From: Bacteroidia bacterium
Lineage (GTDB): Bacteria; Bacteroidota; Bacteroidia; UKL13-3
Assembly (NCBI GenBank): GCA_018058135.1
Contig: JAGPCK010000011.1
Coordinates: 6 to 64,005 of the forward strand
Length of the DNA: 64,000 nucleotides
Direction: 5' to 3'
Shown piece after piece: positions 51,791-53,642 of this stretch (the first letter of the stretch is position 1; each line of letters starts with the position of its first letter). Below the pieces are notes generated by a model. It was not told where the DNA came from, made no database searches, and worked only from the letters and a program-made list of their open reading frames with translations. Position numbers and translations under genes: made by a program.

Positions 51791-51819
51791 AAAAAGCACA
51801 CCCAATCAGGTGTGCTTTT
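51791..51819. terminator. Intrinsic terminator downstream of tRNA-Arg
   Basis: AAAAGCACACC-N6-GGTGTGCTTTT. Confidence 0.75.
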
Positions 51820-51825
51820 ATGTAG

Positions 51826-51897
51826 TGGCCTCGTCAGGAATCGAACCTGAATCTGGAGCTTCGGAAACTCTTATACTATCCGTTGTACTACGAGGCC
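51826..51897 (-). tRNA. tRNA-Arg (anticodon CCG); CCA not encoded
   Basis: Acceptor stem GGCCTCG/CGAGGCC, D arm GTAC..GTAT, anticodon loop TTCCGAA, T arm TCAGG-TTCGATT-CCTGA. A -7 promoter element TATCTTTG lies at 51908-51915 (minus strand). Confidence 0.92.
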
Positions 51898-51928: not shown

Positions 51929-52498
51929 TTACCAAGGGCGTGGAATCTGCAGGATATCTCCGGGTTGCATATCGTTCAGCCACAAAGTATTGATGCGTAC
52001 CCGCACCAAGCGTACTGTAGGGAACCCCACAGCGGAGGTCATTCTGCGTATCTGCCTGTTTTTACCTTCTTTGAGCACAATGGAGAGCCAGGTGTAAGGT
52101 TTTTTCTGGTGTTTAATCATGTGCGGTAAGCGGTGGGGAATGGGCAGGGGTTCCTGCAATATTTTTACGGTGCAGGGTTGTGTGGTGTAAGGCACCCCCT
52201 CCACACTAATGTGTATCCCTTGTTCCAGTGCCAGTCGCTGTTCTTCACTTACCACACCTACCACCTGTACCCAGTACTCTTTCTCCATGCTTTTATCATG
52301 GAGTGTGAGGTGGTGAAAACTTTTATCGTCAGTAAGTAGCAATAAGCCCTCGCTGTCTTCATCTAAGCGGCCAAGCGGTTGTACCCCTTCAGCAAACAGG
52401 TGTACATCGCGCAGTGTTTTTTTCTTTTTCACATCACTGAAATGCTGGCTGATAATACCGATGGGTTTATACAACAGGTAATAACGAAACTCACTCAT
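51929..52498 (-). CDS. RNA pseudouridine synthase (RsuA/RluE-like)
   Basis: YKPIG, GRLDEDSEGLLLLTDD and EGKNRQIRRM; probable start at ATG 52498 (track 52519). Confidence 0.9.
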   Translation of the reverse strand: MSEFRYYLLYKPIGIISQHFSDVKKKKTLRDVHLFAEGVQPLGRLDEDSEGLLLLTDDKSFHHLTLHDKSMEKEYWVQVVGVVSEEQRLALEQGIHISVEGVPYTTQPCTVKILQEPLPIPHRLPHMIKHQKKPYTWLSIVLKEGKNRQIRRMTSAVGFPTVRLVRVRINTLWLNDMQPGDILQIPRPW

Positions 52499-52667
52499 CG
52501 GCACAACATTTTCCATCATGTGTTTCTTTTATCCAGGCTTCGTCTGTTGGTTGTTCGTCAGGTTTATCGGGTGCGGTTTCTTTTGCGGGCGTACACCAGT
52601 CGCAGGGTTCACCGTTGGCGGTAAAGCCGGTTCCTTCACATTGTGGGCACACATATCCGCAGGTCAT
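52491..52667 (-). CDS. Small Cys-rich protein, 58 aa, missing from the ORF track
   Basis: MTCGYVCPQCEGTGFTANGEPCDWCTPAKETAPDKPDEQPTDEAWIKETHDGKCCADE. Its ATG directly follows the miaA TAA and its stop overlaps the next ATG (ATGAGTGA). Confidence 0.75.
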   Translation of the reverse strand: MTCGYVCPQCEGTGFTANGEPCDWCTPAKETAPDKPDEQPTDEAWIKETHDGKCCADE

Positions 52668-53642
52668 TTATTTAAGTTGAGAGTGCAAAGATAGTTCATG
52701 TAACAGCATCTGCAATTGTTCGCTTACGGGTAAGTTGGCATCCATCCAATGAATGTGCAAACCCTCACGCTCCAATTTGCGCCACCAGGTCATTTGCCTG
52801 CGCGAATATTGTTGTATGGCAATAGTCAACAGTTCTTGCAATTGTGTATAGGAATATTTGCCCTGTAAAAACTCGGTTACAAATTTATACTCCAGTCCGT
52901 AGCGGATGAGTTGAGCGGCTTCAATACCTGAGGCCAGCAAACTTTCGGTTTCTTCTATCAAGCCGTTTTGTAAACGAAAGCGCAGGCGCTCAGTAATATT
53001 TTTTTTGCGGTGTTCGGCAGTCAACGCCATACCAAAACACAACGGTAGAACTTTGGGGTAATTGTTTTGAGGCAAAGAGTGGTGAAGTAACCAGGAGCAT
53101 ATTTCAATGGCGCGAATTAATCTTTTGGCTGTTGATGTATCTGCCAACCGTGTGTAAGCAGTAGCAGGAAGTTGCCGGAAAATATGTAGTAACTCTTCTT
53201 TACTTTTTGGCTCCAGTTCACTGCGCAAAATTTCGTTAACGGGCACGGAGGTAAATTGATGCTCGTGCAACAATGCATGAAAATAAAGAGCCGTACCACC
53301 GCAAAGCACGGGCAACTTGTGTTGTTCAGTAAGTTGTTTAAATACGGTATTAAAATCATGGGTAAACTGATGCAGGTGATACGTGGTGCCGGGTTCGGCA
53401 ATGTCAATCAGGTGCACGGGTAGTTGTTTTCCGTTTACGGTATATTCCTGCAAATCCTTTCCTGTTCCAATGTTCATGCCTCTGTAAACCTGACGAGAGT
53501 CGAGGCTGATAACGTCTGTGTGCAGGGCAAAAGCAGCGGCTGCAGCCAATCGGGTTTTACCCGAGGCTGTAGGACCGATAATAGTAATGCAGTTAATTGC
53601 TTCCAAATATCTCTGAACTTGAGGTCTTGTTTTACAGCGCAA
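52668..53642 (-). CDS. miaA: tRNA dimethylallyltransferase
   Basis: GPTASGKT, DSRQVYRGM.IGTGKD, CGGTALY and YSRRQMTW motifs; exact start uncertain. Confidence 0.9.
   Translation of the reverse strand: MRCKTRPQVQRYLEAINCITIIGPTASGKTRLAAAAAFALHTDVISLDSRQVYRGMNIGTGKDLQEYTVNGKQLPVHLIDIAEPGTTYHLHQFTHDFNTVFKQLTEQHKLPVLCGGTALYFHALLHEHQFTSVPVNEILRSELEPKSKEELLHIFRQLPATAYTRLADTSTAKRLIRAIEICSWLLHHSLPQNNYPKVLPLCFGMALTAEHRKKNITERLRFRLQNGLIEETESLLASGIEAAQLIRYGLEYKFVTEFLQGKYSYTQLQELLTIAIQQYSRRQMTWWRKLEREGLHIHWMDANLPVSEQLQMLLHELSLHSQLK

Follow-up and report, generated by a model that had tools for sequence, protein, structure and literature searches.

In the stretch of Bacteroidia DNA analysed here (the window, 64,000 nt in length), a 58-codon frame located between miaA and a gene coding for an RluE-like pseudouridine synthase is almost certainly a real protein-coding gene. 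Its product belongs to an undescribed family confined to uncultured freshwater Bacteroidota, and the evolutionary support for this family, as judged from sequence comparison, is unusually clean. We propose, tentatively and with slightly less than even confidence, that the gene codes for a genuine acidic metal-binding microprotein, whose N-terminal Cys knuckle is a non-catalytic module that works with the protein encoded beside it or fused to it, in this case the RluE-like synthase. The family is absent from the Pfam and NCBIfam models; the bacterial zinc-knuckle microprotein as a kind is already known. With metal binding predicted, the microprotein adds a well-defined family to the small set of such proteins.

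Genomic setting and coding evidence

The genes follow each other in the order miaA, small gene, rluE-like gene and tRNA-Arg gene (Table 1), with a stop/start abutment on the upstream side of the small gene and an overlap on its downstream side. At the TAAATG junction, the microprotein ATG (52667-52665) comes directly after TAA (52670-52668), the stop codon of miaA. The ATG of the synthase gene (52519-52517) sits within the microprotein codons H50-D51, and the conserved synthase N-terminus MKENV is the +1 reading of the microprotein HEGKCC. The frame, its abutting start and its overlapping stop were thus found as the earlier note had described them; the frame is on the minus strand, and the overlap measures 29 nt. 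The downstream synthase belongs to the RsuA/RluB/E/F subfamily, does not contain an S4 domain and carries the catalytic GRLD motif; with a score of 105 against a cut-off of 284 for the RluE equivalog model, it is closest to RluE without being an equivalog. The tRNA-Arg(CCG) gene is probably the last gene of the operon. An RNA-modification operon thus seems to end in a tRNA gene, with a strong terminator behind it; this order of genes recurs in four congeneric genomes (L026, L028, L029 and L030) and is not seen in other genera. A 58-aa ORF on the opposite strand (52518-52694, plus strand) was rejected as a mirror ORF, the antisense frames containing stops in most orthologs.

Table 1. Features of the small gene, its product and the surrounding operon in the window
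Feature	Positions	Strand	Description and evidence
Terminator-like hairpin	51792..51819	-	12-bp stem followed by a T run; closes the operon
tRNA-Arg(CCG)	51825..51897	-	ARAGORN; 31 nt past the synthase gene
RluE-like pseudouridine synthase	51929..52519	-	PF00849 E=1e-19; TIGR00093 133.6 vs cut-off 109.3
Dual-coding overlap, 29 nt	52491..52519	-	Microprotein end / RluE-like gene start
Microprotein gene	52491..52667	-	58 codons plus TGA stop (52491-52493); ORF, orthologs, purifying selection, open frame
C-terminal motif, residues 42-58	52494..52544	-	DEAWIKETHDGKCCADE; alignment A2; AF2 helix 42-51
Acidic Pro-rich variable linker, residues 26-41	52545..52592	-	No conserved columns in A2, variable length; AF2 pLDDT ~60
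N-terminal knuckle, residues 1-25	52593..52667	-	M-T-CGYVCPQCEGTG-x7-CDWC; alignments A1 and A2; intact in fused forms
miaA (tRNA dimethylallyltransferase)	52668..53642	-	PF01715 E=1e-47; TIGR00174 154.9 vs cut-off 148.65

The earlier note had named a lack of homologs with conserved cysteines as part of the result that would speak against the gene. Such homologs were found in most genomes of the order, which consists of a single family. When 40 relatives were searched, each of the 24 that belong to the same taxonomic family gave a match, and an order-wide profile search gave one in 101 of 119 genomes, with a single match in 100 and two matches in one; among the high-quality genomes of the order, 73 of 80 carry the microprotein. 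In every ortholog, an ATG stands one to three codons ahead of an invariant CGY. The selection analysis that the note had also suggested points to purifying selection: over a 23-codon core in 20 orthologs, mean pS was 0.73, which is near saturation, and pN 0.20, and variability was 0.38 at the third codon position against 0.13 at positions 1 and 2. In a six-frame check, the microprotein frame alone was open in 20/20 orthologs, the other five being interrupted in most of them.

A wider HMM search of 1.84 billion representatives returned 106 matches at E<1e-3 (matched representatives clustered at 50% identity), most of them 36-93 aa long and carrying the motif right at their N-terminus. Among 185,579 species genomes scanned for the pattern, 108 proved to be carriers, all of which are metagenome-assembled genomes, with titles that are mostly Bacteroidia, Bacteroidetes/Bacteroidota, Chitinophaga/Chitinophagaceae, Cytophagales/Cytophagaceae or Sporocytophaga. 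Several records with a Bacteroidota-type locus bear the titles of other phyla, namely L028, L053, L079 and L082 (Bifidobacteri-), L063 (Spirochaetia), L084 (Vulcanococcus) and L093 (Methylacidiphilales), and these are probably mislabelled or contaminated bins. The microprotein was present in none of 146 sampled genomes from 61 other families of the class. The gene had been called 'uncalled', which is wrong because the exact protein is already held in NCBI nr, where a 95% relative, MFA7381344.1, is listed as 'hypothetical protein'.

It is highly improbable that the frame does not code for a protein at all and is a chance ORF, a reflection of conservation of the synthase start or of an RNA element, or the precursor of a RiPP or a leader peptide. 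The gene is short, 29 nt of it overlap another gene, and no Shine-Dalgarno sequence is evident 5' of its ATG in 20 loci, all of which could be read in that sense; the absence of a Shine-Dalgarno sequence is usual for Bacteroidota. Against this stand the selection at the codon level, the fact that only the microprotein frame is open, its retention where the neighbours differ and as a domain in fusion proteins, and the absence of modifying enzymes nearby. As the C-terminal motif is kept where the downstream or neighbouring genes are unrelated, it does not owe its conservation to the synthase start that overlaps it, and the idea that the conservation of HEGKCC merely reflects that start was ruled out. 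The constraint on the dual-coding stretch seems to come from the microprotein frame.

The cysteine knuckle and its predicted metal sites

The microprotein (58 aa; kept as P0001) reads MTCGYVCPQCEGTGF...CDWC...THDGKCCADE, and an example of a peptide within it is TAPDKPDEQPTDEAWIK. Its seven Cys and one His residues, C3, C7, C10, C22, C25, H50, C54 and C55, are spaced as C3-x3-C7-x2-C10, C22-x2-C25 and H50-x-G-x-C54-C55, so that the pattern CxxxCxxC...CxxC with a terminal HxGxCC and an acidic linker, as previously noted, is exact in the translation. Conservation was assessed in two alignments, one of 20 orthologs (A1) and one of 46 full-length forms (A2), the latter including metagenome-assembled Cytophagales genomes in which the neighbouring genes are unrelated. 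Residues C3, G4, Y5, C7, P8, C10, E11, G12, G14, C22 and C25 are invariant in A1; in A2, the invariant knuckle residues are C3, G4, Y5, C7, P8, C10, G12, C22 and C25, with E11 nearly so. In the tail, W45, H50 and C55 are invariant in A2 and the second Cys is found at position 53 or 54. The tail motif W45-x4-H50-x(2,3)-C-(x)-C55 is kept in 36 of the 81 species loci examined, Cytophagales included. The signature of the family can be written as M-x(1,3)-CGY-x-CP-x-CEG-x-G-x7-C-x-[WY]-C, often followed by W-x4-H-x(2,3)-C-(x)-C.

Given these residues, the microprotein probably binds a metal through the knuckle. From the eight conserved ligands one may infer two tetrahedral sites, in which C7, C10, C22 and C25 would hold one Zn, and C3, H50, C54 and C55 would form a second site, which would staple the C-terminal helix onto the knuckle. 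Since C3 is invariant also in forms without the C-terminal H/CC motif, such a second site cannot be its only role. For the predicted site, computation cannot decide between Zn and Fe; in Haloferax micro-proteins, comparable Cys motifs may carry no metal at all or hold Co or Ni, and AF2 cannot decide occupancy (PMC11241148). The AF2 model of the microprotein has a pLDDT of 75, with the helix at residues 42-51 as its sole predicted element; neither Foldseek (E<=0.001) nor VIA-align (Z>=2) matched it to a known structure, and a search of the ESM Atlas gave leads below 0.9 only. The pI of the microprotein is ~4.3, the median among the full-length forms is also 4.3, with 36/36 at or below 4.8, and the mean net charge of the knuckle is -2.9. 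This acidity makes a protein-binding or a metal/redox module more likely than an RNA binder.

Relation to known families

Scans of the microprotein and its 46 relatives against Pfam, NCBIfam and PHROGs did not reveal any family at threshold. By profile comparison, the N-terminal 25 residues are distantly related to a single hairpin of the cysteine-rich domain of DnaJ, to which they are connected via intermediates. The A1 profile matches the multi-repeat proteins P0025, P0066, P0092, P0099 and P0101 with E-values from 3e-13 to 4e-5, and four of these five pass the DnaJ_CXXCXGXG model PF00684 (41.9-71.8 bits against 32.7), P0099 lying just under it with 31.8 bits; the link to the DnaJ hairpin is therefore a transitive one. 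The microprotein contains an exact CxxCxGxG half, C7-P-Q-C10-E-G-T-G14, with a CxxC 11 residues further on; C7, C10 and G12 of these columns are invariant in both alignments and G14 in A1 only. Unlike DnaJ_CXXCXGXG domains, it has a single hairpin, the second half of which is without xGxG, it has no J-domain, and an invariant Cys-Gly-Tyr precedes the motif. Membership in PF00684 implies passing the gathering threshold and four repeats in two Zn centres, whereas the microprotein has one full motif plus a CxxC; it does not match the model at E<=1, and 3 of the 46 family members do so, with a best E of 0.012. The suggestion of the earlier note that the N-terminal part resembles a DnaJ zinc finger or a rubredoxin can be kept for its DnaJ half, through the profile links to proteins that pass PF00684. 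Its rubredoxin half found no counterpart: no rubredoxin family emerged from the Pfam and NCBIfam scans, and rubrerythrin appeared with E=1.3 in the comparison with PDB sequences only. A profile search of PDB sequences otherwise returned matches at the level of the Cys pattern only, namely the MSL2 RING (E=0.003), nanos (0.02), anti-TRAP (3lcz, 0.28) and DnaJ (2.4).

CXXCXGXG motifs bind Zn in DnaJ, in anti-TRAP and in cysimiditides (10.1101/2024.10.02.616296). Anti-TRAP (RtpA; PF15777, NF058604; PDB 2bx9, 3lcz) is similar to the microprotein in being a stand-alone protein of ~55 aa with a single CxxCxGxG zinc hairpin, and it acts by binding another protein, TRAP, with its rtpA operon under T-box control. 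The microprotein differs from it in its W..VHEGxCC tail, its taxon and its operon, which is of the miaA/rluE-like type. One might thus imagine a stand-alone regulator, a small Zn protein that inhibits an unlinked target and for which the operon context is incidental. Size, hairpin and the weak anti-TRAP matches (NF058604, E=0.017; PDB 3lcz) would fit such a regulator, as would the observation that the neighbours vary across orders while the gene is near-universal and single-copy within the order. We regard it as unlikely, since the NF058604 match, which covers residues 7-26 only, reaches 15.2 bits and stays far under the cut-off of 65, and stable fusions to three different partners favour an action in cis or locally. 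The Pfam Anti-TRAP model matches 2 of the 46 family members, with a best E of 0.088.

Two further kinds of small Cys-rich protein invite comparison. The C(P)XCG zinc-finger micro-proteins of Haloferax volcanii (HVO_2753, HVO_0758) and Brz are likewise shorter than 70 aa, with paired Cys knuckles and a partner that is mostly unknown (PMC11241148; see also PMC10716476 and PMC2253796); they are, however, archaeal and have no detectable sequence relation to the microprotein, which has CPxCEG and CxWC motifs, a fifth N-terminal Cys and the H/CC tail. The precursors of cysimiditides, which are RiPPs, are also small and combine two CXXCXGXG motifs with a Zn(Cys)4 centre like that of DnaJ and anti-TRAP (10.1101/2024.10.02.616296); in contrast to the microprotein gene, which has no such enzyme near it, they are always found beside a PIMT-type methyltransferase, and they are actinobacterial. 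A RiPP reading was rejected, there being no matching domain or neighbouring modifying enzyme. Likewise rejected was a radical SAM reading of CxxxCxxC: the C3-x3-C7-x2-C10 spacing is present in a protein of 58 aa without a Radical_SAM match.

Neighbours, natural fusions and candidate partners

Directly upstream of the small gene lies miaA in 29 of 81 species loci and in about 8 of 16 genera of the order, with gaps of -3 to 44 nt in most and of 154 nt at most. The miaA gene adjoins the small gene in none of the Cytophagales members examined, where the upstream gene codes for a class IV aminotransferase, a YpdA-like disulfide oxidoreductase, an FNR/2Fe-2S reductase or an ABC1 kinase, with a gap of 0-3 nt. 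The small gene is tightly packed behind some gene in most loci, and the identity of that gene varies. The RluE-like synthase gene lies downstream in 15 loci; it overlaps the small gene by 25-37 nt in 14 of these, spanning at least two genera, and by 7 nt in the fifteenth. Other loci have, in this downstream position, a gene for a small membrane protein or for a protein sorted by the T9SS. In genus g6, the small gene was found in none of seven genomes, while miaA was kept in 3/3 and the rluE-like gene in 4/4 of the g6 genomes checked. In one genus, the small gene follows a gene for an RluA-type pseudouridine synthase (PF00849, E=5e-30) in place of miaA (L099 and L016), so that it adjoins a pseudouridine synthase gene for a second time, independently of the first. 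In L010 and L065, miaA and the small gene are separated by a short insertion of two ORFs (96 and 123 aa), which, judged from sequence alone, resemble a pair of the nucleotidyltransferase/HEPN type.

The adjacency to miaA amounts to synteny inside a single order. The coupling between two RNA-modification genes put forward in the earlier note is tight in the window, and its MiaA side does not extend beyond this order-specific synteny. That the microprotein works with MiaA, like the Zn-finger of eukaryotic Mod5/TRIT1, would be in keeping with the small gaps and the TAAATG junction; yet no fusion between MiaA and the knuckle was found among the HMM matches and longer relatives, even though the genes abut, the Cytophagales members examined do not have miaA beside the small gene, the latter persists away from miaA in ~8 genera, g6 retains miaA without it, and an acidity of this degree is unlike that of a tRNA-binding finger. 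A role as a MiaA accessory is, in our view, quite improbable.

The knuckle is also found as the N-terminal domain of larger proteins, in 39 clusters at 90% identity. The partner is a protein of the ArsC family (PF03960) in 29 clusters, a PseudoU_synth_2 domain in nine and a membrane protein in one, and in all fusions it replaces the H/CC tail. Two of the synthase fusions are named '23S rRNA pseudouridine2457 synthase' by JGI. Ten aligned synthase fusions are 55-96% identical to the first one; their linker is variable, and they keep all invariant knuckle residues except Pro8, which is Ala in one of them. In a tree of the synthase domain, the fusions are interleaved with the separate forms; two changes or more are required on the ML tree, although the fusions may have arisen only once.

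How might the knuckle act? In the proposed model, the products of miaA, the small gene and the rluE-like gene would be made by coupled translation, the knuckle would be a non-catalytic binding or regulatory module for the protein encoded beside or fused to it, and its partner in the window would be the RluE-like synthase and not MiaA. In favour of the synthase are the conserved overlap of its start with the end of the small gene and the fusions, which recur and have long been maintained. Counted against it are the more frequent ArsC fusions, the membrane-protein fusion, the unrelated neighbours in Cytophagales and the g6 genomes that keep the rluE-like gene without the small gene. An AF2 model of a natural knuckle-RluE fusion (based on a 10-sequence alignment) has a low pLDDT for knuckle and linker; it does not predict docking, nor does it speak against it. 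We consider the RluE-like synthase a possible, if doubtful, functional partner. For the link to RNA modification suggested in the earlier note, the RluE-like fusions are the only direct hint, and the greater number of ArsC fusions as well as g6, with miaA and the rluE-like gene on their own, speak against it.

The dominant ArsC fusions, together with the redox-enzyme neighbours, suggest a thiol/redox or metal-handling function as the main rival. In this case, the Cys-rich module would act as a switch (thiol/disulfide or zinc-redox) or, like rubredoxin, as an electron carrier with an Fe(Cys)4 centre; it would serve thiol-dependent enzymes, with no specific tie to RNA modification. The catalytic Cys of ArsC, the commonest fusion partner, needs a thiol partner; copies in Cytophagales start 2-3 nt past a gene for a YpdA-like pyridine-nucleotide disulfide oxidoreductase or an FNR/2Fe-2S reductase; and C3, which stays invariant in forms that lack the C-terminal ligands, might serve as a free and reactive thiol. 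The adjacent CC pair, which we take to be reminiscent of desulforedoxin, was also counted in its favour. On the other hand, Pfam and NCBIfam scans gave no rubredoxin, thioredoxin or glutaredoxin matches, the RluE-like and membrane-protein fusions are without redox logic, and the contexts are heterogeneous. Overall, we find such a function rather unlikely. One might also speculate, as an improbable but more novel reading, that the CGY-knuckle serves as a portable switch at the N-terminus, which senses metal or redox state and, stand-alone or fused, tunes the activity or stability of unrelated housekeeping enzymes, namely an rRNA pseudouridine synthase, an ArsC-type thiol reductase and a membrane protein; if true, this would mean zinc- or thiol-dependent control of RNA modification in a freshwater lineage of Bacteroidota.

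Returning to the model of a module for the adjacent or fused protein, the 'Rosetta-stone' fusions name concrete candidate partners, the RluE-like synthase and the ArsC-family protein. Should the link to the synthase hold, this enzyme would be rare among pseudouridine synthases in having a metal-binding accessory module of its own; should it fail, the gene is still a good target for annotation, public homologs going under 'hypothetical protein' or, wrongly, under 'DnaJ-class chaperone' or 'arsenate reductase'.

Some of the fused and neighbouring proteins deserve a separate mention. The fusions to ArsC-family proteins (YfgD-like, HNxRCxKSR) form a large clade (L082, L068, L052 and others; P0047, P0056, P0127-P0162), in which an internal Met marks the former arsC start and the public name is plain 'arsenate reductase'. 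In P0077 (1015 aa), the knuckle is joined to a signal-peptide-bearing protein of ~1,000 aa, which by eye is glycoside hydrolase-like; this join is probably a read-through or start-site artefact. Finally, several genera have a membrane protein of ~110 aa, which belongs to no Pfam family and carries the motif LHVxxWLIKDxxWM, either fused to the microprotein or encoded right behind the small gene (L091, L103, L022, P0072 and P0163; by a separate gene in L075, L080 and L084).
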